Source of the DNA: Alphaproteobacteria bacterium
GTDB lineage: Bacteria > Pseudomonadota > Alphaproteobacteria > RF32 > CAG-239
Assembly: GCA_017626035.1 (NCBI GenBank)
Contig: JAGAJR010000017.1
Coordinates: 4,900-68,899 of the forward strand
Direction: 5' to 3'
DNA length: 64,000 nt
The position numbers and the translations under genes were made by a program. Under the pieces are notes generated by a model that saw only the letters and a program-made list of their open reading frames with translations, had not been told where the DNA came from and made no database searches. Positions 31,089-42,039 of this stretch are shown here, piece by piece (position 1 is the stretch's first letter; each line of letters begins with the position of its first letter).

Positions 31089-31940
31089 TTGATGAACGTT
31101 AAACGATTAAACATACTGTTGTTTTTGATTATGCCAATTTTGGCCGGATGTGCCTCAAAAACCGTGGAAGTGGGAGCTTCTCCGTATTCTCAAGCGTCGG
31201 CGATTAAAAGCCAGGGCGGAGTGTATAAGGTTGGCAATCCTTATAAAATTTTCGGGACGTGGTATTATCCGAAAGAAGATTATTCATATTCGGAGGTTGG
31301 CACGGCTTCCTGGTACGGGAAAGATTTTCATGCAAGGAAAACGGCAAACGGCGAGAATTATGATATGAATACGTTAACCGCGGCTCACCGGACGTTACCG
31401 TTGCCTTCAATTGTAAAAGTAACCAATCTGGAAAACGGACGTTCGTTGATTTTGCGGGTTAATGACCGCGGTCCGTATGCCAAAAACCGTATTATTGACA
31501 TTTCCAAGCGTGGGGCTCAGTTATTGGGATTCCAAGTTCAGGGAACAGCCAAAGTCCGTGTGGAGGTTATGGAGAAAGAAAGTAAAGCTTTGAAAGCCGC
31601 TTTAACCGGACAGCCTTGCGATACAACCGTTGCAACGGTTATTCCGCAAAAACCGGTTACCTATACGCCGGCGGCGACTACTTATGTTAAGCAAAATTAT
31701 TCCGAAGCGGAAAAAATGTATTATGTTCAGGCCGGAGCGTTCAGCAATAAGGCTTCCGCCAATAATTTGAGTGCGAAACTTTCCAAATACGGAAAATCAA
31801 GAGTTGCCCATGCTTTGGTGGACGGAAAAAATTTTTACAGGGTCAGATTGGGACCTTTCCCGTATAAGGAAGAGGCCGAAGTTTCTTTGGCCAGAGTAAA
31901 GAGTTATGGCGTTTATAACGCTAAAATTGTCAGGGATTAA
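31089..31940 (+). CDS. rlpA: septal ring lytic transglycosylase RlpA (DPBB domain) with C-terminal SPOR domain
   Basis: Lipoprotein signal (LAGCAS), GTASWYGKDFHARKTANGENYD DPBB motif, C-terminal SPOR (YYVQAGAFSNKASANNL...YRVRLGPF). Confidence 0.85.
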   Translation: MMNVKRLNILLFLIMPILAGCASKTVEVGASPYSQASAIKSQGGVYKVGNPYKIFGTWYYPKEDYSYSEVGTASWYGKDFHARKTANGENYDMNTLTAAHRTLPLPSIVKVTNLENGRSLILRVNDRGPYAKNRIIDISKRGAQLLGFQVQGTAKVRVEVMEKESKALKAALTGQPCDTTVATVIPQKPVTYTPAATTYVKQNYSEAEKMYYVQAGAFSNKASANNLSAKLSKYGKSRVAHALVDGKNFYRVRLGPFPYKEEAEVSLARVKSYGVYNAKIVRD

Positions 31941-31959
31941 TTTTTTTAGAGGGTTAAAG

Positions 31960-33114
31960 ATGTCGTTGAAAAATAAATTGTGTGTTTATACATTGCTTTC
32001 TTCCTGCCTGTGGGCCGGAGTTGCCGGGGCAAGTGCTTTGGAAACCAAAGCCAGAAACGTGGTTCTGATGGATTATGATACGGGGCGGTATCTTTATACC
32101 AAAGATTCCGAAAAAATGGTTCCGCCGGCATCCATGAGCAAGTTAATGACCGTATATATGATTTTCAGCAAATTAAAAGACGGTTCGCTTTCTTTAGACG
32201 ATACGTTTACTGTCAGTGAAAATGCTTGGCGAAAAGGCGGAGCTGCCAGCGGCGGTTCGACAATGTTTTTGCCTATCGGGGAAAAAGTTCGTGTGGAAGA
32301 TATTTTGAAAGGCATTATTATTCAGTCCGGTAATGACGCCTGCATTACGGCAGCGGAAAATTTAGCCGGAAGTGAGGAAAACTTTGCTTCCGAGATGCAG
32401 GAAACCGCAAAAAGAATAGGTTTGAATAACAGTTCCTTTGTTAATGCAACGGGGCTTCCTCATCCTGATCATCGGATGTCGGCAGAAGATTTGGCTAAGT
32501 TAGCCCGCCATATTATTTCAGAATTTCCGGAATATTATTATCTGTTTTCGGAAAAGACATTTAAATACCACAACATTATTCAGGGAAACAGAAATCCTCT
32601 TCTATACAGTATGCCTGATGCAGACGGTTTGAAAACCGGACATACGGATGAGGCCGGCTTCTGCCTGACTGCCTCCGCCAAGAGAGGAGACCGGCGGTTA
32701 ATCAGCGTTATGACGGGAATGAAGTCAAACAAAGAACGCAGTGAGGAAGCCGAAAAAGTCATGAGTTGGGGTTTCCGTGAATTTGACAATTATCAGGTGT
32801 TGAACAAAGGACAGAAAATCGCGGAAATTCCGGTTTGGTTCGGCACGGAAAAAACAACGGATTTGATTGTTGCGGATAACGTTTTGGAAACCATTCAGAA
32901 GAGCAAGGCTTCCAAAGTCAAGATGACGGCTGTTTATGATAAGCCGGTGAAGGCTCCGATTGCACAAGGACAAAAGCTTGGCGTTGTTAAAATTGAAATT
33001 CAGGGAGAAGAAACGCAAGAAGTTGATTTGGTTGCCGGAACATCCGTTAATAAATTGAACTTTTTCGGGAAAATTATGGCTAATTTGAAATATTTGCTTT
33101 TGGGAGAGCAATAA
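31960..33114 (+). CDS. D-alanyl-D-alanine carboxypeptidase (PBP5/6 family)
   Basis: SMSKLMT (SxxK), SGN and KTGHT motifs; signal peptide; C-terminal PBP5 domain. Confidence 0.85.
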   Translation: MSLKNKLCVYTLLSSCLWAGVAGASALETKARNVVLMDYDTGRYLYTKDSEKMVPPASMSKLMTVYMIFSKLKDGSLSLDDTFTVSENAWRKGGAASGGSTMFLPIGEKVRVEDILKGIIIQSGNDACITAAENLAGSEENFASEMQETAKRIGLNNSSFVNATGLPHPDHRMSAEDLAKLARHIISEFPEYYYLFSEKTFKYHNIIQGNRNPLLYSMPDADGLKTGHTDEAGFCLTASAKRGDRRLISVMTGMKSNKERSEEAEKVMSWGFREFDNYQVLNKGQKIAEIPVWFGTEKTTDLIVADNVLETIQKSKASKVKMTAVYDKPVKAPIAQGQKLGVVKIEIQGEETQEVDLVAGTSVNKLNFFGKIMANLKYLLLGEQ

Positions 33115-33116
33115 TT

Positions 33117-33773
33117 ATGAGAGGTAAGTTTATTACCTTTGAAGGCGGGGAAGGAACCGGCAAGTCTACGCAGCTTAAGCTGCTGAGCGATTATTTGTCG
33201 GCAAAATCCATCCGCAATATTGCCACAAAAGAACCCGGGGGAACGGATATCGGTCTCGATTTGAGGAGAATTCTGGTTACCGGCGACAAAGACAAGCTTG
33301 ATCCGGTGGCAGAAGCTTTGTTGTATTTTGCCGACAGGAGAGTCCATTTGACAGGTAAAGTCTGGCCGGCAATGGAGACCGGAGAGTGGGTATTGTCCGA
33401 CCGGTTTGCGGACTCGACGACGGCATATCAGTATTTTGGTTATGATAAAAGAGTTTCCCGTAAGGTTTTAGATGATTTGTATGCGTTGGCTGTCGGTGAT
33501 TTTGTTCCTGATTTGACGATTATTTTTGATTTGGATCCGGAAATAGGTTTGAAACGTTCTTTTGCCAAAGCGGATAATATGAGCGTTAAGGAAACCCGTT
33601 TTGAAAGCCGTGGTTTGGAATTTCATCAAAGAATGAGACACGGTTTTCTGGAAATAGCCAAAGAAAATCCGGAGCGGTGCGTGGTGTTGGATGCAAATAA
33701 AACGATTGAAGATTTGCATCATGATGTTGTCAGTGTAATAGAAGAAAGGTTTAATCTGCAGAATGCCGGATGA
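33117..33773 (+). CDS. tmk: thymidylate kinase
   Basis: ITFEGGEGTGKST P-loop; DRF motif. Confidence 0.9.
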   Translation: MRGKFITFEGGEGTGKSTQLKLLSDYLSAKSIRNIATKEPGGTDIGLDLRRILVTGDKDKLDPVAEALLYFADRRVHLTGKVWPAMETGEWVLSDRFADSTTAYQYFGYDKRVSRKVLDDLYALAVGDFVPDLTIIFDLDPEIGLKRSFAKADNMSVKETRFESRGLEFHQRMRHGFLEIAKENPERCVVLDANKTIEDLHHDVVSVIEERFNLQNAG

Positions 33774-34824
33774 TGTTTCCACTACCGTATTTACGCCGAA
33801 AACCAATAATTTTCTTCTCGGCCATGAGAAAGAAGAGAAAATGCTTTTGGATGCCTGGAAGAATAATTCTTTGCATAATTCGTGGCTGTTTTGCGGAATT
33901 GAGGGAATAGGCAAAGCTACTCTGGCGTATCGGTTTGCCCGTTTTCTTTTATCGGCAGATGACAAGGACAAATCCCGTTATAATAGTTTGGATGTGAGCG
34001 AGAACAGCCAGATTTTTAAATTGGTTGCCAATAATTCGCATCCTGATTTGAAAATTATTGAACGAGATTATACGGACACGGACCGCAAAAAAATCCTTAA
34101 GGCGATTAAGGACGGAGAGCAGCTTTCCGACGAGGAACTGAAAGGCTTGAAACGTTCGGCGTTTATTCGTGTTGATGATGTGAGAACGATTAATGAATTT
34201 CTTTCCAAAAAGTCGTCAAATGACAGTTGGCGGGTCGTGATTATTGACAGTATTGACGATATGAATCCGGCGAGTGCTAATGCGGTCTTGAAAATTTTGG
34301 AAGAACCGCCGGCAAAAACGGTTATGCTTTTAATCAGCCATAATCCCAATCGTTTGCTTCCGACAATTAAATCAAGATGTGCCAAGCTTAATCTGCATCC
34401 GTTGGAAGAAAACACGGTTGCCAGTCTGTTAAGACGGTATCGGTCGCAACTGAGTGAGAAAGACGTTAAAGGATTGGCAAAAATTTGCTCGGGAAGTATC
34501 GGAAAAGCCATTAATTATGCGGATAATTCGGCATTGAATTGTTATGATGATTTGTGTAAAATTATTTATGCAAAATCAAAATTCAGTATTGCCGGTTTGT
34601 TGGCTTTTTGTGATGCCGCGGTGCAAAATGAGGAAAGCTATTATTTGACGCAGGAATTGATTTTGAAGTTTTTTTCGGAGAATATTAAGGGCTGCGATAA
34701 TGTGGAAGCTTTGGGAGCGGCCTGGGATAACGCGGTAAAAGCTTTTGATTCGACCGAAAGGTTAAATTTGGATAAAAAACAAACGTTAATTAATGTAATT
34801 ACAAATATCTGTAAAGCGATATAA
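33763..34824 (+). CDS. holB: DNA polymerase III subunit delta'
   Basis: AAA+ clamp-loader fold with degenerate Walker A (CGIEGIGKATLA) and conserved tmk-holB order. Confidence 0.8.
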   Translation: MPDDVSTTVFTPKTNNFLLGHEKEEKMLLDAWKNNSLHNSWLFCGIEGIGKATLAYRFARFLLSADDKDKSRYNSLDVSENSQIFKLVANNSHPDLKIIERDYTDTDRKKILKAIKDGEQLSDEELKGLKRSAFIRVDDVRTINEFLSKKSSNDSWRVVIIDSIDDMNPASANAVLKILEEPPAKTVMLLISHNPNRLLPTIKSRCAKLNLHPLEENTVASLLRRYRSQLSEKDVKGLAKICSGSIGKAINYADNSALNCYDDLCKIIYAKSKFSIAGLLAFCDAAVQNEESYYLTQELILKFFSENIKGCDNVEALGAAWDNAVKAFDSTERLNLDKKQTLINVITNICKAI

Positions 34825-34833
34825 AGGATTGAT

Positions 34834-35628
34834 ATGTTAGTAGACAGCCATTGTCATTTGGATTTTAATGATTTTGAAGAAGATTTTGAAGAAGTGTTAA
34901 ACCGGGCTAAAGAAAACGGGGTTACCACGATTTTGAATGCCGGTAATAATATTAACGAATTGGAACAGCAGCTGGAGTTGTCGGAAAAATATCCGTTTAT
35001 TTATACGGCAGTCGGGGTGCATCCTCATAATGCTTCGGAATATAAGGACATTAAAGCAGAAGATTTTATCGCTCAGACAAAGCATAAAAAAGTCGTCGGA
35101 ATTGGCGAGTGCGGCTTAGATTATTACTACGATTACAGTCCGAAAGAAGAGCAAGTTAAAGTCTTTGTTGAACAAATCAGAGCCGCTCAGCAAACGGGAT
35201 TGCCGCTGATTATTCATACCAGAGATGCTGATGAAGATACAATTGAAATCTTAAAGGAAGAATATGAAAAAGCTCCGTTCAGCGGGGAAATTCATTGTTT
35301 TTCTTCGTCTAAAAAATTGGCTGAATTTGCATTGTCGATAGGTTTTTATTTGTCGGCTTCGGGAATTATTACTTTTAACAAATCAAACGATTTGAGAGAT
35401 ATTTTTGCGGAAGTTCCTCTTGACCGACTGTTAGTGGAAACCGACGCTCCGTTTCTTGCTCCCATTCCGATGCGGGGACGCCGCAACGAACCGTCTTTTG
35501 TGTTGCATACGGCGGAAAAACTGGCTCAGATAAAAGATATTTCTTTGGAAGAATTGGCTCAGATTACTTCCGATAATTTCTTTAAGCTTTTCAGAAAGGC
35601 CAGTGACAAAGGGAGATATGAGTTTTGA
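34834..35628 (+). CDS. tatD: TatD family metal-dependent DNase/hydrolase
   Basis: N-terminal LVDSHCHLDF and HTRDA motifs. Confidence 0.9.
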   Translation: MLVDSHCHLDFNDFEEDFEEVLNRAKENGVTTILNAGNNINELEQQLELSEKYPFIYTAVGVHPHNASEYKDIKAEDFIAQTKHKKVVGIGECGLDYYYDYSPKEEQVKVFVEQIRAAQQTGLPLIIHTRDADEDTIEILKEEYEKAPFSGEIHCFSSSKKLAEFALSIGFYLSASGIITFNKSNDLRDIFAEVPLDRLLVETDAPFLAPIPMRGRRNEPSFVLHTAEKLAQIKDISLEELAQITSDNFFKLFRKASDKGRYEF

Positions 35629-36413
35629 AAAATAAGCTGATTATTTTGGGAAGCGGTGCGGCTCCGGGTGTTCCTTCTTTGGGAACCGGTTTTAATCAGT
35701 GTAATCCCGAGAACCTTAAAAATATCAGAATGAGAACCTCCACTTATCTGGAATTTTCCGGTATTAAGCTGCTTATTGATACCAGTCCTGATTTGAGAAC
35801 GCAGCTGATTAATCAGAATATACGCGATATTGATGGTGTTTTGTATTCTCATTCGCATGCCGACCATTTGAACGGAATTGACGATTTGCGGGAAATTAAC
35901 CGTATTAACCGACAGAGCCTGAATTTTTATGCGGGAAAGCAAACGACTAAAGATATTCAGAAACGTTTCAGTTATCTGATTGCGTCAAAGAAAACGACAA
36001 ATAATGTTATTCTTCGTCCGAGTTTGGTGGCTAATGTGGTCAAAGCCAATCATCCTTTTTATATCAAGGGTGTGAAAATTGTTCCGATTAAAATGGTCGG
36101 GCATTGTCCGGAATGTTTGGGATATGTGTTTAATGACGGGGAATACGTCCATATTGCCGACTTTAAGCTTTTGGCTTCCAGTGCCTATAAAATGATTTTG
36201 AAACGTCCGAAGCTGATGACGCTTCCGCTGACGAATATCCGGGGGGCCGTACAACATGCCGATTTGGGCGAGATTATGGAATGTGTCGAGAAGATTAACC
36301 CTGAAAGTGTCATTATCAACCATATGAGCAATGAATGCGATTATGACGAGGTTAACCGTTTGACTCCGGAGAATGTTCGTCCGGCTTATGACAATTTGAT
36401 TGTGGAATTTTAG
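35625..36413 (+). CDS. MBL-fold metallo-hydrolase
   Basis: HSHADHLNGIDDL metallo-beta-lactamase motif. Confidence 0.8.
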   Translation: MKNKLIILGSGAAPGVPSLGTGFNQCNPENLKNIRMRTSTYLEFSGIKLLIDTSPDLRTQLINQNIRDIDGVLYSHSHADHLNGIDDLREINRINRQSLNFYAGKQTTKDIQKRFSYLIASKKTTNNVILRPSLVANVVKANHPFYIKGVKIVPIKMVGHCPECLGYVFNDGEYVHIADFKLLASSAYKMILKRPKLMTLPLTNIRGAVQHADLGEIMECVEKINPESVIINHMSNECDYDEVNRLTPENVRPAYDNLIVEF

Positions 36414-36425
36414 AAAAGGGAAAAT

Positions 36426-37301
36426 GTGGAGATGTTATGTATTTATCATGTTGCCGATCATGACGGCAAAGGATCAGGGGCTATCGTCAAAAGAGTTTAT
36501 CCGGAAACGGAACTTTTAGGATTAAACCACGATATGGAAATTCCTTATGCCGAAATAGAAAAACATGATAAAATCATTGTATGCGATTATGCCCTGCCGA
36601 TAGATTATATGCTTGAACTCAATAAAACCAAAGATTTGACATGGATTGACCATCATGCTTCGGTTATCAAAGAATATGACGAGAAGATGGCAACCGGAAA
36701 ATATGAGCCGATTAAAGGCAGTCGGATTTCAGGAACGGCGGCAATTGTCTTGACATGGAAATATTTCTTTCCAGACAAACCTGTTCCTGAAGGAGTTGTT
36801 TTACTTGGCTTGAATGACGTATTTGATTTGAGGGACAAGCGGGTTCGTCCGTTTGAATATGCGATTCAGTCGATGGGCGTTAATCGTCCGGAAGATGAGA
36901 TTTGGTCGGAGATTTTTGACGGCAGATTGGATATTGCGTCTGTTGTCGAAAAAGGCGAAGCGATTTTATCTTGGATAAGAGTTCGCAATTACCGTTTGGC
37001 AAGAAGCATTGCTTTCGAAAGCGAGATAAACGGATTGAAATGTATTTGTGCCAATATGCCGCAGGGATATTCCGATTTTTTTGATTCTTTGGAAAATGTC
37101 GATGAGTATGATGTGCGGATTAATTTCTTTATGAACAAAAAGAATTTGTGGAATCTTTCTTTTTATACATACAAAGACAATGTCAATGTTTCCGAATTGG
37201 CGGCAAGTATGGGCGGCGGCGGCCATGTCAAGGCGGCCGGAGCTTCCAATCTTCCCGAACTTCCTGAATTTCTGAGAAAAGGCTTAAGAAAACTTGGTTA
37301 A
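36426..37301 (+). CDS. DHH/DHHA1 family phosphoesterase (NrnA-like)
   Basis: [13 protein letters not shown] motif I, WIDHHAS (DHH motif), C-terminal GGGH of the DHHA1 domain; GTG/ATG start region after AAAAGGG. Confidence 0.6.
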
Positions 37302-37926
37302 GCATTGGTCAAAAGTAGAATATCTGCATCAGAGCGTTAAAAATCCCAATATTATTGTCAAGGGGACGCACAGTTATTACAGCGATGCCTGGACAGGAAG
37401 CTTTGAAGAGTATGTCGTCCGTTATTTGTATGGGGACGCTTACAGTTTGGAGCATTGGCAACCGCAATGGAAATTGGATAAACTTTATATCGGCGATTAT
37501 GTGTGCGTCGGCGGAGAGAGCGTTATTCTGATGGGCGGCAACAACACGCACCGGACGGATTGGTTCAGCGATTATCCTTTTATGGATAAAATTGTCGAAA
37601 GCTATGAGGCTAAAGGCGATACGGTTATCGGCGACGGTGTGTGGATAGGAATGAGAGCGGTTATCCTGCCGGGTGTGAAAATCGGAGAGGGTGCCGTTAT
37701 CGGTACCGGAGCTGTTGTTACAAAAGATGTTGAGCCGTATTCGATTGTGGCCGGAAATCCGGCCAAGGAAATAAAAAAACGATTTGCTTCGGATGTGATT
37801 GAAGAACTTTTATCATTGAAAATTTATGATTTGCCGGAAGAGGTTTTCGACCGATTGAGGAGTGAACTTTGCGGCGGAGATATTGAACGTCTTAAGGCTC
37901 GAATGAAAGAACTCGGCGTTTTGTAA
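37294..37926 (+). CDS. Vat-family xenobiotic/streptogramin A O-acetyltransferase homolog (hexapeptide-repeat acyltransferase)
   Basis: Strong colinearity with Vat/CatB-type acetyltransferases: [80 protein letters not shown]. Confidence 0.7.
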
Positions 37927-38038
37927 AAAGGAGGCTGTTTCGCAGGGGGAAACAGCCTTTTTTTTCTTGTGAAAAAAAATTAAAGTTGTAAAATTGCCCC
38001 GTCTGAATAATTTAATAATAAAAAATGGAGAGAACTTA

Positions 38039-39739
38039 ATGTCAAAAATTCTTATCACTTCCGCATTGCCTTATATCAACGGCGTGCCGCATCTGGGCCA
38101 CATGGTCGGCTGTCTGCTTCCTTCCGATGTTTATGCCAGATATATGCGAATGATGGGAAATGAAGTTCTCTATATTGCCGGAACGGATGAACACGGAACG
38201 ACTTCAGAAGTCGGGGCTTTGAATGAAGGAATGGATGTTCAGGCTTATTGTGATATGTATCATCAGCGTCATGCCCAGACTTATCAGGATTTCAAGCTTT
38301 CGTTTGATTATTTCGGACGGACATCCAGTGAGCAGAACAAAGAAATTACTTATCATATTTTTGAACAATTGGATAAAAACGGGTATATTGAAGAAAAGAC
38401 AATCAAACAGATTTATTCCGTTGACGACAAGATGTTTCTGGCCGATCGCTATATTACCGGAACTTGTCCGCATTGCGGTTATGAAAAAGCCCGCGGCGAC
38501 CAATGTGAAAACTGCACAAAAGTTTTGGAACCGACCGACTTAATAAATGCCCGCAGCACAATTTCGGGAAGCACCAATTTGGAAGTTCGGGAAACAAAGC
38601 ATTTGTTTTTAAACCTTCCGAAAATTCAGGAACGTCTCGGCGATTGGCTGAAGACGAAAGAACCTTTCTGGCCGGATGTGGCTTATACCATTGCCCAGAA
38701 GTGGCTGAAAGAGGGTTTGCAGGAACGCTGCATTACCCGCGATTTGAAATGGGGCTTTCCGGTAAACAAACCGGGATATGAAGATAAGGTCGTCTCTGTG
38801 TGGTTTGACGCACCTATCGGATATATCGGCATTACCAAGCAATGGGCCGATGAAAATCCATCTGAACGCAATTGGAAAGACTGGTGGATGGGAGCCAAAG
38901 ATGTCCGCTATGTGGAATTTATGGGAAAAGACAATGTTCCTTACCATTCCATTACATTTCCGGCCACGCTGCTGGGAACTGGTGAAGACTGGACAATGGT
39001 GGACTATCTTAAGGGAATGAGCTATTTGACTTTTGAAGGTGGAAAGTTTTCAAAATCAGAAAAACGCGGTGTCTTTGCCGAAGACGCAATTAAGGAATTT
39101 CCGGTTGACTATTGGCGTTACTGGCTGATGTCGAATGCTCCGGAGGCTTCGGATTCCTCTTTTACGTTTGATTTGTTTGCTTCGGTTGTCAATAAAGACT
39201 TGAACGGTGTATTGGGCAATTTTGTCTCCCGTGTTCTGAAGATGACTTCTTCCAAAATCGGCAGTGAAGTTCCTGCCGGCGGCAATGATACCGAAACGGA
39301 AGAGGCTTTGGTTAAAGTGCTTCAGGAAAGAGTCAATGATTATTTCAAATATATGGATGAAATGGAGTTTCGCAAAGCCTTGAATGAACTGAGAGCCATT
39401 TGGGTTGAAGGAAACAACTATATTTCGACGACGGAGCCGTGGACGGTTATTAAAACGGAGCCGGAAAGAGCAGCCGCCATTCTCAGAACTTGTATTAATC
39501 TGATTCGGATTTTTGCAATTCTGAGTGCTCCGATTATGCCTGATACGGCAGAGAAAATGTTGGACAAGCTCGGTCTTAAAGCAGATGATATGCCTTCACT
39601 CAAGGGATTTTCCGTTAAAGAAGAAATACAAGCATTGAAACCGGGGCATAAATTTGAAGTCGGAGATATGCTGTTTGAAAGAATTACACCGGAACGGATT
39701 GAAGAATTAAAAGTAAAGTATGGAAGTGATAAAAAATGA
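38039..39739 (+). CDS. metG: methionine--tRNA ligase
   Basis: PYINGVPHLGH (HIGH) and KFSKS (KMSKS) motifs, CPHCGYEKARGDQCENC zinc knuckle; GGAG RBS. Confidence 0.9.
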   Translation: MSKILITSALPYINGVPHLGHMVGCLLPSDVYARYMRMMGNEVLYIAGTDEHGTTSEVGALNEGMDVQAYCDMYHQRHAQTYQDFKLSFDYFGRTSSEQNKEITYHIFEQLDKNGYIEEKTIKQIYSVDDKMFLADRYITGTCPHCGYEKARGDQCENCTKVLEPTDLINARSTISGSTNLEVRETKHLFLNLPKIQERLGDWLKTKEPFWPDVAYTIAQKWLKEGLQERCITRDLKWGFPVNKPGYEDKVVSVWFDAPIGYIGITKQWADENPSERNWKDWWMGAKDVRYVEFMGKDNVPYHSITFPATLLGTGEDWTMVDYLKGMSYLTFEGGKFSKSEKRGVFAEDAIKEFPVDYWRYWLMSNAPEASDSSFTFDLFASVVNKDLNGVLGNFVSRVLKMTSSKIGSEVPAGGNDTETEEALVKVLQERVNDYFKYMDEMEFRKALNELRAIWVEGNNYISTTEPWTVIKTEPERAAAILRTCINLIRIFAILSAPIMPDTAEKMLDKLGLKADDMPSLKGFSVKEEIQALKPGHKFEVGDMLFERITPERIEELKVKYGSDKK

Positions 39740-40575
39740 AATTAAGTAAGAAATCTGATAATTTTGGAAAATTAAGAGGCTGGCCGGCATTTTTGCATAA
39801 AGTGTTTTTGGTTGTTTCTTATCCGTTCAGAAAACCGTTGATTTTTATTCCGGTGGCTGTCTTGTTGTATTTGGCACCGACGTTTCGCGGGGTTAAGCCG
39901 ACGGAAGTTCATTTGTGGTATTGGGGAAAAATCAAGAGCATTTCTTCAACGGTAACGGCTTCCGTTACGGATAAGACAAAGGATATTTTGCCTGAAACGG
40001 CTAAAAATCTTATTCAGCAGGTAACAACGCCGGAACCGGAAAAGGGGATTGACCAATTGGTGGAAATGCCGAGACTGTCTCCGAAGGCTGTCCGCCGCCA
40101 GATGTTTGAAAAGGCAAAATCAGCTCCGGTGGCCGTTGATATTTTGGAAACGGAAGAAGCTTTGTCTGTTCCGGGATTTCAAAATTCGGCAGAGGGCAAA
40201 AATGTTGCCGAGCAGGCTCCGGTTTCTGAAAATGCGGCTCCGAAACCGCAAACGGTTACGGTTCCGAGAAAGCTGCCTTTGGTTTACTTGGATATTCCTA
40301 AAGAAATCAGCGGCGATATAAAAGTAAACAATGCCAATGAAATTGAAGTCGGCGGAACATATCTGTTTTTATACGGCGTTTATATTAATCCGGACAGCAG
40401 TGAAGGGATTAATGCCAAGAATTTCTTGGAAATTATGACTAAAGGCCAAAAAGTAAGATGTACGATTTTGGCTTATACCTATCAGGATATTGCGACGGGT
40501 ATTTGTTATGTCGGTACAAAAAACATCAATCAAACTTTGGTGGATGAAGGATTGTCCAGAAACGTGGCTTTATAG
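39736..40575 (+). CDS. membrane-anchored protein with degenerate SNase/thermonuclease-like C-terminal domain
   Basis: N-terminal TM segment; C-terminal YLFLYGVYINPD...KVRCTILAYTYQDIATGICYVGTKNINQTLVDEGLS loosely resembles the thermonuclease fold. Confidence 0.4.
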   Translation: MKLSKKSDNFGKLRGWPAFLHKVFLVVSYPFRKPLIFIPVAVLLYLAPTFRGVKPTEVHLWYWGKIKSISSTVTASVTDKTKDILPETAKNLIQQVTTPEPEKGIDQLVEMPRLSPKAVRRQMFEKAKSAPVAVDILETEEALSVPGFQNSAEGKNVAEQAPVSENAAPKPQTVTVPRKLPLVYLDIPKEISGDIKVNNANEIEVGGTYLFLYGVYINPDSSEGINAKNFLEIMTKGQKVRCTILAYTYQDIATGICYVGTKNINQTLVDEGLSRNVAL

Positions 40576-40596
40576 CCGTTATTGAAAGGTAGTCGT

Positions 40597-42039
40597 ATGT
40601 GGCAGCCGGTTTTAATGATTAACGGATATCTCATCAGCGTTTTGGGATTGGCTATGCTTATTCCCGCCGCGGTTGATATGTCCGTTAACAAAACCGGCTG
40701 GTCCTTATTTATCAATTCGTCGCTTATTTCCATTTTTATCGGTGTTTCTTTGTTTTTGGCAAATCGGAAAACGATAAAAAAAATTACGTTGCAACAAGGA
40801 TATTTAATTACGGTAGTCAGTTGGGTTTCAATGACTTTGCTGGCAACGATGCCCTTTTTGTTTTACGGGACGGTGTCCGGTTTTACGGATGCGTGGTTTG
40901 AAGCAATGTCCGGTTTTACGACAACCGGGGCGACAATTATGAAAGATGTCGAGATTTTGCCGAAGCCGATTTTGTTATGGCGTTCTATGTTAAGCGGGCT
41001 GGGCGGTATCGGAATTGTAATTTTTGCCGTGGCGTTGCTGCCGTTTCTCGGAATAGGGGGAATGCAAATTTTTCAACGGGAAAATTCGGATATTAATGAC
41101 AAATTTATGCCGAAGTTTAATTATATTGCCAAACGAATTCTTGCCGTTTATTTCTTTTTGGCCATGTTATGTGCTTTTTCATTGCATTTTGCGGGAATGA
41201 ATTGGTTTGATGCGGTCAATCATACTTTGACGACGATTGCTACCGGCGGCTTTTCGACTAAAAATACCTCAATAGGCTATTATCACAGTGTCGGTATTGA
41301 AATGGTTATTGCCTTGTTTATGTTTTTAGGGGCTTTGCCGATGACCTTTTATATTATGGTTATGCAAAACAAGGATTTGAAGTCTTTTCGGACGGAACAG
41401 GTAACTTTCTTTATTAAGGTGTTGTCTGTTTATATTTTGTTTATGACCTGTTGGTTGGCATGGAACGGAAAATATGACTTTTTTGAGGCTCTGCGTTATT
41501 CTGTTTTTAATATTATTTCCGTGGTAACCAGCACAGGGTTTGCCTCAACCGACTATATGAAATGGGGTGTTTGGGCAGGAGCATTTTTTATCATGTTTGC
41601 TTTGACCGGAGGATGTACCGGTTCCACATCTGGTTCGATTAAAATGTTTCGTTGGCAGGTTGTGCTTGCTTATGTGAAAAAAACGCTGATTACGGCAACG
41701 GATCCAAACCGGGTGGTGCCGATTAAAGTGGGTAGTCTGACGACTTCGGAATCTGTGGTTTCGTCAGTTTTGGTGTTTATGACGGCTTATTTTTTCAGTG
41801 TGGTGTTTTTGACTATTTTTGTTTCTATGACGGGATTGGATTTTGAAACCGCTTTTAGTGCCGTGATTGCCTGTATGACTAATTCCGGTCCGGGAATCGG
41901 TCCGATTATCGGGCCTTCGGGGAATTACAGTTCTCTTTCCGATGTGGCAAAATATCTTTTGTCTTTTGCTATGTTGTTGGGACGTTTGGAACTTTTGACC
42001 GTTCTTGTTTTGTTTACCAAAAATTTTTGGCGGAACTAA
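40597..42039 (+). CDS. trkH: Trk system potassium uptake protein TrkH
   Basis: Multi-TM TrkH/KtrB profile with repeated GFxTxG selectivity-like motifs (SGFTTTGAT, GGFST). Confidence 0.85.
   Translation: MWQPVLMINGYLISVLGLAMLIPAAVDMSVNKTGWSLFINSSLISIFIGVSLFLANRKTIKKITLQQGYLITVVSWVSMTLLATMPFLFYGTVSGFTDAWFEAMSGFTTTGATIMKDVEILPKPILLWRSMLSGLGGIGIVIFAVALLPFLGIGGMQIFQRENSDINDKFMPKFNYIAKRILAVYFFLAMLCAFSLHFAGMNWFDAVNHTLTTIATGGFSTKNTSIGYYHSVGIEMVIALFMFLGALPMTFYIMVMQNKDLKSFRTEQVTFFIKVLSVYILFMTCWLAWNGKYDFFEALRYSVFNIISVVTSTGFASTDYMKWGVWAGAFFIMFALTGGCTGSTSGSIKMFRWQVVLAYVKKTLITATDPNRVVPIKVGSLTTSESVVSSVLVFMTAYFFSVVFLTIFVSMTGLDFETAFSAVIACMTNSGPGIGPIIGPSGNYSSLSDVAKYLLSFAMLLGRLELLTVLVLFTKNFWRN

Follow-up and report, generated by a model that had tools for sequence, protein, structure and literature searches.

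Within the DHH/DHHA1 superfamily, nanoRNases are described in the literature as gripping short oligonucleotides between both lobes, and dinucleotide clearance, i.e., the activity of a dinuclease, is essential in the bacteria studied. In Alphaproteobacteria, the characterised nanoRNase is NrnC (PMC9779919). NrnB proteins that carry no long C-terminal extension favour 2-4-mers and may act in their hosts as the only nanoRNase, and the NrnB clades A-C are restricted to Bacillota and Campylobacterota (PMC12709177). Phages also encode DHH proteins, which are uncharacterised; the counter-defence or nucleotide-metabolism roles proposed for them are predictions (PMC7824862, PMC7412058). Here we analysed a 64,000-nt stretch (hereafter the window) of the genome of an alphaproteobacterium (contig JAGAJR010000017.1), and in it a gene for a DHH/DHHA1 phosphoesterase of a phage-type subfamily (the DHH gene), which is overlapped at its 3′ end by a gene for a hexapeptide-repeat acetyltransferase (XAT). 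Our reading, to which we give a probability of roughly 0.55, is that the DHH gene encodes an anciently captured phage-type phosphodiesterase that now serves in the housekeeping degradation of short oligonucleotides.

A scan with the DHH protein over one genome per species gave 80 loci (L001-L080), all of them from uncultured gut, rumen or faecal Alphaproteobacteria (record names such as CAG:495, RUG, RGIG, UBA and 'uncultured Azospirillum'). When the proteins of the window were mapped onto these loci, about 75 of the 80 proved to carry the block dacC-tmk-holB-tatD-MBL-DHH (MBL denotes the gene of a metallo-beta-lactamase-fold hydrolase) with gene order and orientation unchanged, and a tree of the concatenated block spreads the loci over three deep sub-clades. 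The exceptions were truncated contigs, L076, which has no detectable MBL gene, and L077, whose DHH gene is found at another genomic position. A sequence-only reading of this DNA had taken the DHH and XAT genes as an insertion that splits a conserved tmk-holB-tatD-MBL-metG block, and had proposed a synteny comparison as its check. This comparison reveals, for the DHH gene, an order that is ancestral and general in the clade; the DHH gene is part of the block, it is the adjacency of metG that varies among the relatives, and the insertion reading is therefore refuted for DHH.

The features of the window that bear on this result are as follows.

31906-33114, + strand: open reading frame (ORF) of a dacC-like penicillin-binding protein, upstream of tmk.
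33117-33773, + strand: tmk, ORF with a Pfam Thymidylate_kin match.
33763-34824, + strand: holB, ORF with a Pfam DNA_pol3_delta2 match.
34834-35628, + strand: tatD, ORF with a Pfam TatD_DNase match.
35625-36413, + strand: MBL-fold hydrolase, ORF with a Pfam Lactamase_B_2 match.
36432-37301, + strand: DHH/DHHA1 phosphoesterase of the phage-type subfamily, 289 aa from the ATG at 36432 (the ORF was listed as 36426-37301, i.e., 291 aa from the GTG at 36426).
37294-37926, + strand: CatB-related hexapeptide-repeat acetyltransferase (XAT), 210 aa, TTG start.
37932-37965, + strand: intrinsic terminator, a 10-bp GC-rich hairpin followed by T8.
37967-37994, + strand: promoter-like site of metG, TTGTGA-16-TAAAAT.
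38039-39739, + strand: metG from its likely ATG (the ORF lister gave the TTG at 37994), confirmed by Pfam.
39736-40575, + strand: a 279-aa ORF (orf279), no Pfam match.
40582-42039, + strand: trkH, ORF.

The DHH gene is not only present at this position but also the best-conserved member of the block in 47 of the 69 full loci that were compared, two near-identical relatives being left out. The median identity to the window over these loci was 68% for DHH, followed by tmk (65%), dacC (63%), holB and tatD (56% each) and MBL (53%), and the median MBL-DHH gap was 18 nt. The ratio of nonsynonymous to synonymous substitution rates (dN/dS) of DHH was 0.03-0.09, comparable to that of holB, tatD and metG, and these values are rough because dS is near saturation. 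The DHH gene is a vertically inherited, strongly constrained, ancestral core operon gene of the clade. As an observation apart, L077 shows a rare relocation: its DHH gene stands between small ORFs without annotation on one side and a dacC/SPOR-MipZ pair on the other.

The gene found 3′ of DHH varies. In 28 genomes, the more distant ones, dnaJ-lolC/E-lolD stands in place of metG, and just 12 of the 80 genomes have metG no more than 5 kb from DHH, at about +100 to +3200 nt. It follows DHH in one sub-lineage only, and since its adjacency varies among relatives, metG stands outside any fixed block in the clade. Between DHH and the conserved gene that comes next (37302-38038 in the window; also compared in L003-L012, L081 and L083), different genomes have XAT, an Fe-dependent alcohol dehydrogenase gene, both, unannotated ORFs, or nothing. 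Synteny breaks off on the 3′ side of DHH, which is a variable slot.

In this region a housekeeping operon, dacC-tmk-holB-tatD-MBL-DHH(-XAT), comes to its 3′ end at an intrinsic terminator. The tmk, holB, tatD and MBL genes are closely spaced or overlapping, and the two ORFs that the sequence-only reading had placed between MBL and metG, with overlapping ends, are indeed there (36426-37301 and 37294-37926): they share 8 nt, and the TTG start of XAT lies inside the last DHH codons. That reading had given non-ATG or ambiguous starts to both genes, which holds for XAT (TTG 37294) but not for DHH, since the DHH start is the ATG at 36432, whose methionine (M3 of the 291-aa ORF, in MLCIYH) is invariant in 34 homologues, most of them 286-296 aa long. 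The terminator hairpin and its T8 run were read in the + strand sequence; the terminator scan lists the hairpin on the - strand only. The element is near-identical in L001 and L002, and in L002 it directly follows the DHH stop. Beyond it, metG, with its likely ATG at 38039 (MSKILITSALPY...) and a GGAGAG box upstream, is a transcription unit separate from the DHH-XAT operon. The GC content of the DHH and XAT genes is 0.40-0.46, within the local range; a repeat search around the pair returned only chance matches of 12-17 nt, in agreement with the lack of flanking repeats noted before; and no mobility genes were found beside the pair with Pfam, the neighbours being housekeeping genes. The pair does not have the characters of a mobile cassette or genomic islet, and of the two genes XAT alone is patchy. 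We hold the anatomy and evolution of the locus, as read here, to be established with high confidence.

The affinity of the DHH protein is with phage proteins. It matched PHROG 4771 (DHH phosphoesterase) with E=1.4e-34 and 120.7 bits, residues 1-274 aligning with profile positions 16-282 of 363, and its structural matches in BFVD, with template modelling (TM) scores of 0.69-0.79, were DHH proteins of jumbo phages (PhiEaH1, PaBG, RP12 and ME3) and of giant viruses, whereas any PDB entry scored 0.57 or less. By tblastn, relatives with 25-31% identity were found in phiEL-like Pseudomonas jumbo phages and in a 462-kb uncultured phage, and in IMG/VR at least 307 viral contigs, many of them of 80-330 kb, encode relatives at 28-41% identity. 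The context was phage-like in all six inspected contigs of the 34-41% relatives (DnaB, PolB, SNF2 helicase, HNH and head-tail joining genes, and runs of small ORFs). The proteins of this kind from phages, jumbo phages and giant viruses (PHROG 4771; Pseudomonas phage EL, PaBG gene 189, PhiEaH1 of Erwinia, RP12 of Ralstonia, Klosneuvirus, Marseillevirus) have the same architecture of about 270-320 aa and the same motifs, with 25-41% identity between the window protein and those of phages and viral contigs; they differ in setting, since the PHROG 4771 members are found in phage genomes and the DHH gene of the window in a bacterial housekeeping operon. An exhaustive search (E<=1e-3, representatives at 50% identity) collected about 5500 clusters, mostly of 270-300 aa. 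Among the full-length representatives the closest has 64% identity (P0121), the next 48%, and the others 43% or less, and the hits at 64% or above are alphaproteobacterial. The bacterial DHH clade is tight (at least 64% identity), with a gap to all viral relatives (41% or less). Beyond the clade, the relatives of the protein (48% identity at most) are encoded largely by phages. In a neighbour-joining (NJ) tree, midpoint-rooted and without bootstrap, the alphaproteobacterial DHH proteins (19 of 19) were monophyletic and lay 12 nodes deep among viral or phage-context sequences.

The DHH gene is probably of phage origin, with the direction of transfer inferred. The simplest history would be that a phage gene was captured once in the distant past, before the clade radiated, and then became fixed downstream of MBL; the acquisition does look ancient, and it was not joint with that of the acetyltransferase. 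Of the acquired two-gene cassette that had been proposed, then, what stands is that XAT is a variable accessory gene and that DHH was apparently acquired, anciently, from a phage-type family; a recent, mobile or joint acquisition does not stand.

Three observations on the distribution of the subfamily may be set beside this. DHH proteins of giant viruses of eukaryotes (Klosneuvirus, Hokovirus, Marseillevirus, Lausannevirus and Pithovirus) were matched at TM scores of 0.70-0.74, and by these structural matches the subfamily spans phages, giant viruses and this bacterial clade. Some members lie inside larger proteins, i.e., P0221 (1620 aa, with DHH/DHHA1 at 809-1088), P0150 (469 aa) and P0137 (374 aa), and embedding of the P0221 type suggests fusions that might hint at function. 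The one strong match in INPHARED, MT835680.1 (L086, 64.7% identity), was considered as phage evidence and rejected: it carries dacC-tmk-holB-tatD-MBL-DHH-orf279-trkH, and because this 'UNVERIFIED: Bacteriophage sp. clone scaffold_431' holds the whole operon it is a mislabelled fragment of an alphaproteobacterial chromosome. The record is unverified and unannotated, and misleading if taken as a sign of phage origin.

The protein has the catalytic motifs of the superfamily (residues are numbered on the 291-aa ORF). Residues D11, D13, D54, D75-H76-H77, D131, G265 and G266 were invariant in an alignment of 81 family sequences (about 35% identity), in which G263, G264 and H267 of the GGGGH motif (263-267) were kept in at least 90%; the metal-binding motifs I-IV (DxD, D, DHH, D) are likewise invariant in the 34 close homologues. 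The DHH and GGGH motifs reported from the sequence are thus present, the former as WIDHH and the latter as GGGGH, which aligns with the GGGH of TmPDE and DhhP and is followed by a C-terminal tail of about 24 residues only. An AlphaFold2 model (predicted local distance difference test score 91.8) has two alpha/beta lobes with a long helical linker between them, and matches DHH/DHHA1 enzymes in fold searches. The Pfam thresholds were not reached for DHH (PF01368; 17.1 vs 28.1 bits, E=0.007) or DHHA1 (PF02272; 20.8 vs 25.9 bits), as befits a divergent subfamily, so that membership of the superfamily rests on the motifs and the fold. Neither Pfam nor the AlphaFold2 model revealed another domain in the 289-291-aa protein, whose DHH domain begins at residue 3. 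Its subfamily within DHH/DHHA1 is short (about 270-300 aa) and uncharacterised.

We then compared it with the characterised members of the superfamily. With NrnB (COG2404; B. subtilis YngD and the NrnB of H. pylori and C. jejuni) it has in common the DHH/DHHA1 fold and the helical linker. IMG labels homologues of about 70% identity, and a 37% relative, as COG2404 'oligoribonuclease NrnB/cAMP/cGMP phosphodiesterase', and one homologue as nanoRNase/pAp phosphatase (pAp, adenosine 3′,5′-bisphosphate); the top PDB match of Foldseek by E-value was the H. pylori DHH protein 6mtz, whose DHH domain was also matched by the family profile at 4e-5. The short C-terminus resembles that of NrnB clades B and C, which prefer short RNA (PMC12709177). 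However, the sequence similarity to NrnB is marginal, the protein has about 290 aa vs 347-355 aa in 6mtz, NrnB is defined by its 3′-5′ polarity, and the window protein, from an alphaproteobacterial host, probably falls outside the clades A-C. NrnA/pAp phosphatase, together with Rv2837c, TmPDE, DhhP and Pde2, shares the superfamily, the catalytic motifs and the two-lobed fold, and NrnA, whose substrates are dinucleotides and pAp, is plausible as an analogue in function. The name NrnA-like, given to the protein in the sequence-only reading, is right at the level of the superfamily but goes too far beyond it: the NrnA equivalog NF053633 (NCBIfam) was matched with 22.2 bits vs a cutoff of 350, over residues 219-273 only, the alignment is limited to the GGGH region, and the window protein is some 30-40 residues shorter. 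GdpP has N-terminal membrane, PAS and degenerate GGDEF domains, of which the window protein carries none, and RecJ (more than 550 aa) adds an oligonucleotide/oligosaccharide-binding (OB) fold and C-terminal domains to the DHH/DHHA1 core, which the window protein does not. Asked to choose between NrnA, GdpP/Pde2 and RecJ, we would place it remote from NrnA, GdpP and RecJ, in the phage-type subfamily of PHROG 4771.

The DHH protein would then be a metal-dependent, two-lobed phosphodiesterase, with a DHH lobe (DxD, D, DHH, D) for metal binding and a DHHA1 lobe (GGGGH) for holding the substrate. Very short substrates are most likely, since the C-terminal extension that NrnB needs for long RNA is absent: very short oligonucleotides or dinucleotides, and possibly pAp, would be trimmed to mononucleotides. 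This would be the last step in nucleic-acid turnover, beside the TatD exonuclease, the MBL phosphodiesterase and Tmk, which are encoded in the same operon. A housekeeping function of the nanoRNase type, with the substrate and physiological role that it implies, is a tentative assignment, to which we give slightly less than even odds. The stronger proposal, that the captured gene became the essential housekeeping dinuclease/nanoRNase of the clade in place of the NrnC of other Alphaproteobacteria, is unlikely.

Two other activities were considered for the DHH protein. According to the first, it would be a phosphodiesterase of cyclic or linear signalling nucleotides (cyclic di-AMP (c-di-AMP), products of cyclic di-GMP, cyclic oligoadenylates, or the signals of type III CRISPR or of the cyclic-oligonucleotide-based antiphage signalling systems, CBASS), acting in host signalling or as a retained phage counter-defence activity, perhaps together with the adjacent MBL. 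GdpP, Pde2, PggH, DhhP and the SAM-AMP-degrading NrN are DHH/DHHA1 enzymes and all are among the fold matches, DHH phosphodiesterases of jumbo phages are predicted to act against immune signalling by cyclic nucleotides (PMC7824862), and the MBL neighbour has a weak Anti-Pycsar_Apyc1 match (17.6 bits vs a cutoff of 50). However, the gene lies in a housekeeping operon (tmk, holB, tatD) and is conserved throughout the clade, unlike the variable genes of defence and counter-defence; PADLOC returned no match for DHH, XAT or MBL; the protein is a bare catalytic core of 289 aa, with no sensor or regulatory domains; and the NrnB homologues tested left c-di-AMP uncut (PMC12709177), a result that applies here as far as the DHH protein, whose membership of NrnB is itself unproven, behaves as they do. 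We regard such an activity as improbable, and the signalling or defence role suggested from the sequence found no support in the PADLOC search or in the setting of the gene.

The second possibility is that of an exonuclease acting on single-stranded DNA or RNA primers in replication or repair, i.e., a minimal RecJ- or GAN-like enzyme, which would account for the link with holB and tatD in the bacteria and with replication modules in phages. The phage relatives adjoin DnaB, PolB and SNF2 helicase genes, and the bacterial operon holds the clamp-loader gene holB and the exonuclease gene tatD, but the tmk-holB-tatD linkage is widespread in bacteria irrespective of DHH, and a 291-aa protein has neither the OB fold nor the extra domains of RecJ or GAN. 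A role of this kind seems improbable as well.

The acetyltransferase has a different history, as its presence in a minority of the loci indicates. The protein has a Pfam hexapeptide repeat (PF00132; 50.5 bits vs a cutoff of 27) in a left-handed beta-helix, and its best solved relative is CatB 5ux9 (E=4.8e-47), to which it aligns in full length and with the catalytic His segment conserved (on the side of the CatB structures QGHRADWISTFPF, and in 5ux9 ...AGNQGHRADWISTFPF); the two features of the XAT class, i.e., the hexapeptide beta-helix and the catalytic His segment, are both present. Over the CatB/XAT structures 5ux9, 6mfk, 3eev and PaXAT 1xat, the alignments with CatB were full-length, with E-values from 4.8e-47 to 1e-38. 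The earlier naming as a Vat acetyltransferase was right as to the hexapeptide repeat and wrong as to the family, since the protein is nearer to CatB than to the Vat streptogramin acetyltransferases: the CatB model NF000490 (NCBIfam) was matched with 170.1 bits (residues 9-206 vs 12-207 of 210; cutoff 350) and the Vat model NF000311 with 133.3 bits (cutoff 300). As both curated cutoffs were missed, a resistance activity is not to be assumed. In Victivallis, Myroides and Spartinivicinus, relatives that share 68-72% identity carry the database name 'CatB-related O-acetyltransferase', identical 210-aa products (100%) are found on 9 contigs, and the best phage-family match was phrog_16087. Like CatB/XAT enzymes, XAT most likely transfers an acetyl group to a hydroxyl of a small xenobiotic.

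XAT stands behind DHH in only two of the 80 species representatives (L001 and L044). Look-ups in metagenomes and assemblies gave further DHH-XAT loci (L081-85, L087, L107, L112, L117, L135 and L140), so that there are at least 13 such loci, all within one of the three host sub-clades, with the XAT start at about -20 to +9 nt from the DHH stop; the gene is co-transcribed with DHH and probably coupled to it in translation, but independent of it in function. In L002, whose DHH is 93% identical, XAT is exactly missing between the DHH stop and the shared terminator. In the closest relative (MAG7984, L001:8869-9498; DHH 95%) XAT carries an in-frame TAG at codon 187 (…EEVFN*LRNEL…), while its flanking genes are intact and 94-97% identical; either the gene is becoming a pseudogene or the stop is an artefact of assembly. 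The XAT of the window is intact, with a dN/dS of 0.07-0.10, like its neighbours, and both XAT and DHH are under purifying selection. The distances of XAT correlated with those of the host block (Mantel r=0.85, p=2e-4; r=0.75, p=9e-4 with near-duplicates removed), a signal carried by the shallow groups window/L001/L081 and L117/L135. As to a single origin of all DHH-linked XATs, which was considered and not adopted, they form one clade in the NJ tree, yet with a bootstrap of 4/100. XAT is an ordinary, dispensable accessory gene in a variable slot, lost or decaying in close relatives, and vertical inheritance was shown within shallow lineages.

The close spacing of the two genes in the at least 13 loci, which suggests translational coupling, and the correlation of XAT and host-block distances could be read as signs of a functional pair, e.g., one by which the same xenobiotic or nucleoside-type compound is modified and hydrolysed in turn. 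Such a pairing is very improbable, because DHH is kept without XAT in 78 of the 80 species representatives and remains intact in both L002 and L001, where XAT is deleted or interrupted by a nonsense mutation, close XATs occur in other taxa without DHH, and in 80 viral loci DHH has no XAT, tmk, tatD or MBL neighbour. A recently acquired two-gene cassette between MBL and metG, which the overlap of the genes, the phage families that are the best matches of both proteins (phrog_4771 and phrog_16087), the near relative L002 without XAT and the close XAT relatives in unrelated taxa might suggest, is scarcely credible, given that DHH holds its position in about 75 of 80 species-level genomes as the most conserved gene of the block, that XAT is a minority gene, that repeats, mobility genes and a GC shift are lacking and dN/dS is like that of the neighbours, that the pair occurs in none of the 80 viral loci, and that flanking genes of 36-97% identity exclude one recently spreading element across the 80 loci.

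Several points weigh against the reading of an anciently captured housekeeping phosphodiesterase. The direction of transfer depends on the midpoint-rooted NJ tree without bootstrap and on where the sequences occurred, many members of the DHH family have no known source, and prophages are among the IMG/VR sequences. The profile matches of the family to solved DHH proteins, in PDB sequence and profile searches, were of 35 bits or less and covered one domain only; taken with its motifs and fold, this leaves the protein a member of the superfamily but of none of its characterised families. The 80 loci were fetched by means of DHH itself, so that genomes of the clade without the gene would escape the count, and in one of them (L077:7956-8873, rumen metagenome-assembled genome RGIG4773) DHH does not follow tmk-holB-tatD-MBL. 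Regarding the accessory gene, equally close XATs are found in unrelated contexts, in organisms of GC 0.48-0.57; this, together with the bootstrap of 4/100, is the reason why vertical inheritance of XAT is claimed for shallow lineages only.

As first stated, the finding of an insertion is ordinary, i.e., a misread operon end and a common accessory acetyltransferase. What is new is that a large uncharacterised DHH subfamily (about 5500 clusters), with many members in big phages, has one branch that is a core, constrained housekeeping gene, and it is likely that this is a phage gene domesticated into central nucleotide metabolism. The hosts are widespread uncultured gut and rumen bacteria, and their DHH branch offers a clean context for assigning the function of the subfamily. 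If the protein were the sole nanoRNase of the clade, it would bear on how lineages fill the essential dinucleotide-clearing step. If the captured gene has indeed become the essential nanoRNase in place of NrnC, the short phage-type subfamily, with its thousands of sequence clusters, would be a further class of nanoRNases, and its phage and giant-virus members might be suggested to serve nucleotide recycling.

Two neighbours of the pair deserve mention. The MBL gene (35625-36413) gave sub-cutoff matches to the NCBIfam model 'GPMC system MBL fold metallohydrolase' and to PRK02113; its Pfam match to Anti-Pycsar_Apyc1, weak in the window (17.6 bits vs 50), is stronger in the precomputed annotation of relatives. 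No other gene of the block evolves as fast (median identity 53%), and DHH and MBL are adjoining phosphodiesterases that both have a resemblance to phage families. The 279-aa ORF (39736-40575) overlaps the metG stop by 4 nt, and its position between metG and trkH is kept in relatives; in L017, L086 and L112 it precedes trkH without metG. It evolves fast, with 33-48% identity in most relatives that carry it and a dN/dS of 0.09-0.35, and encodes an uncharacterised lineage-specific protein.

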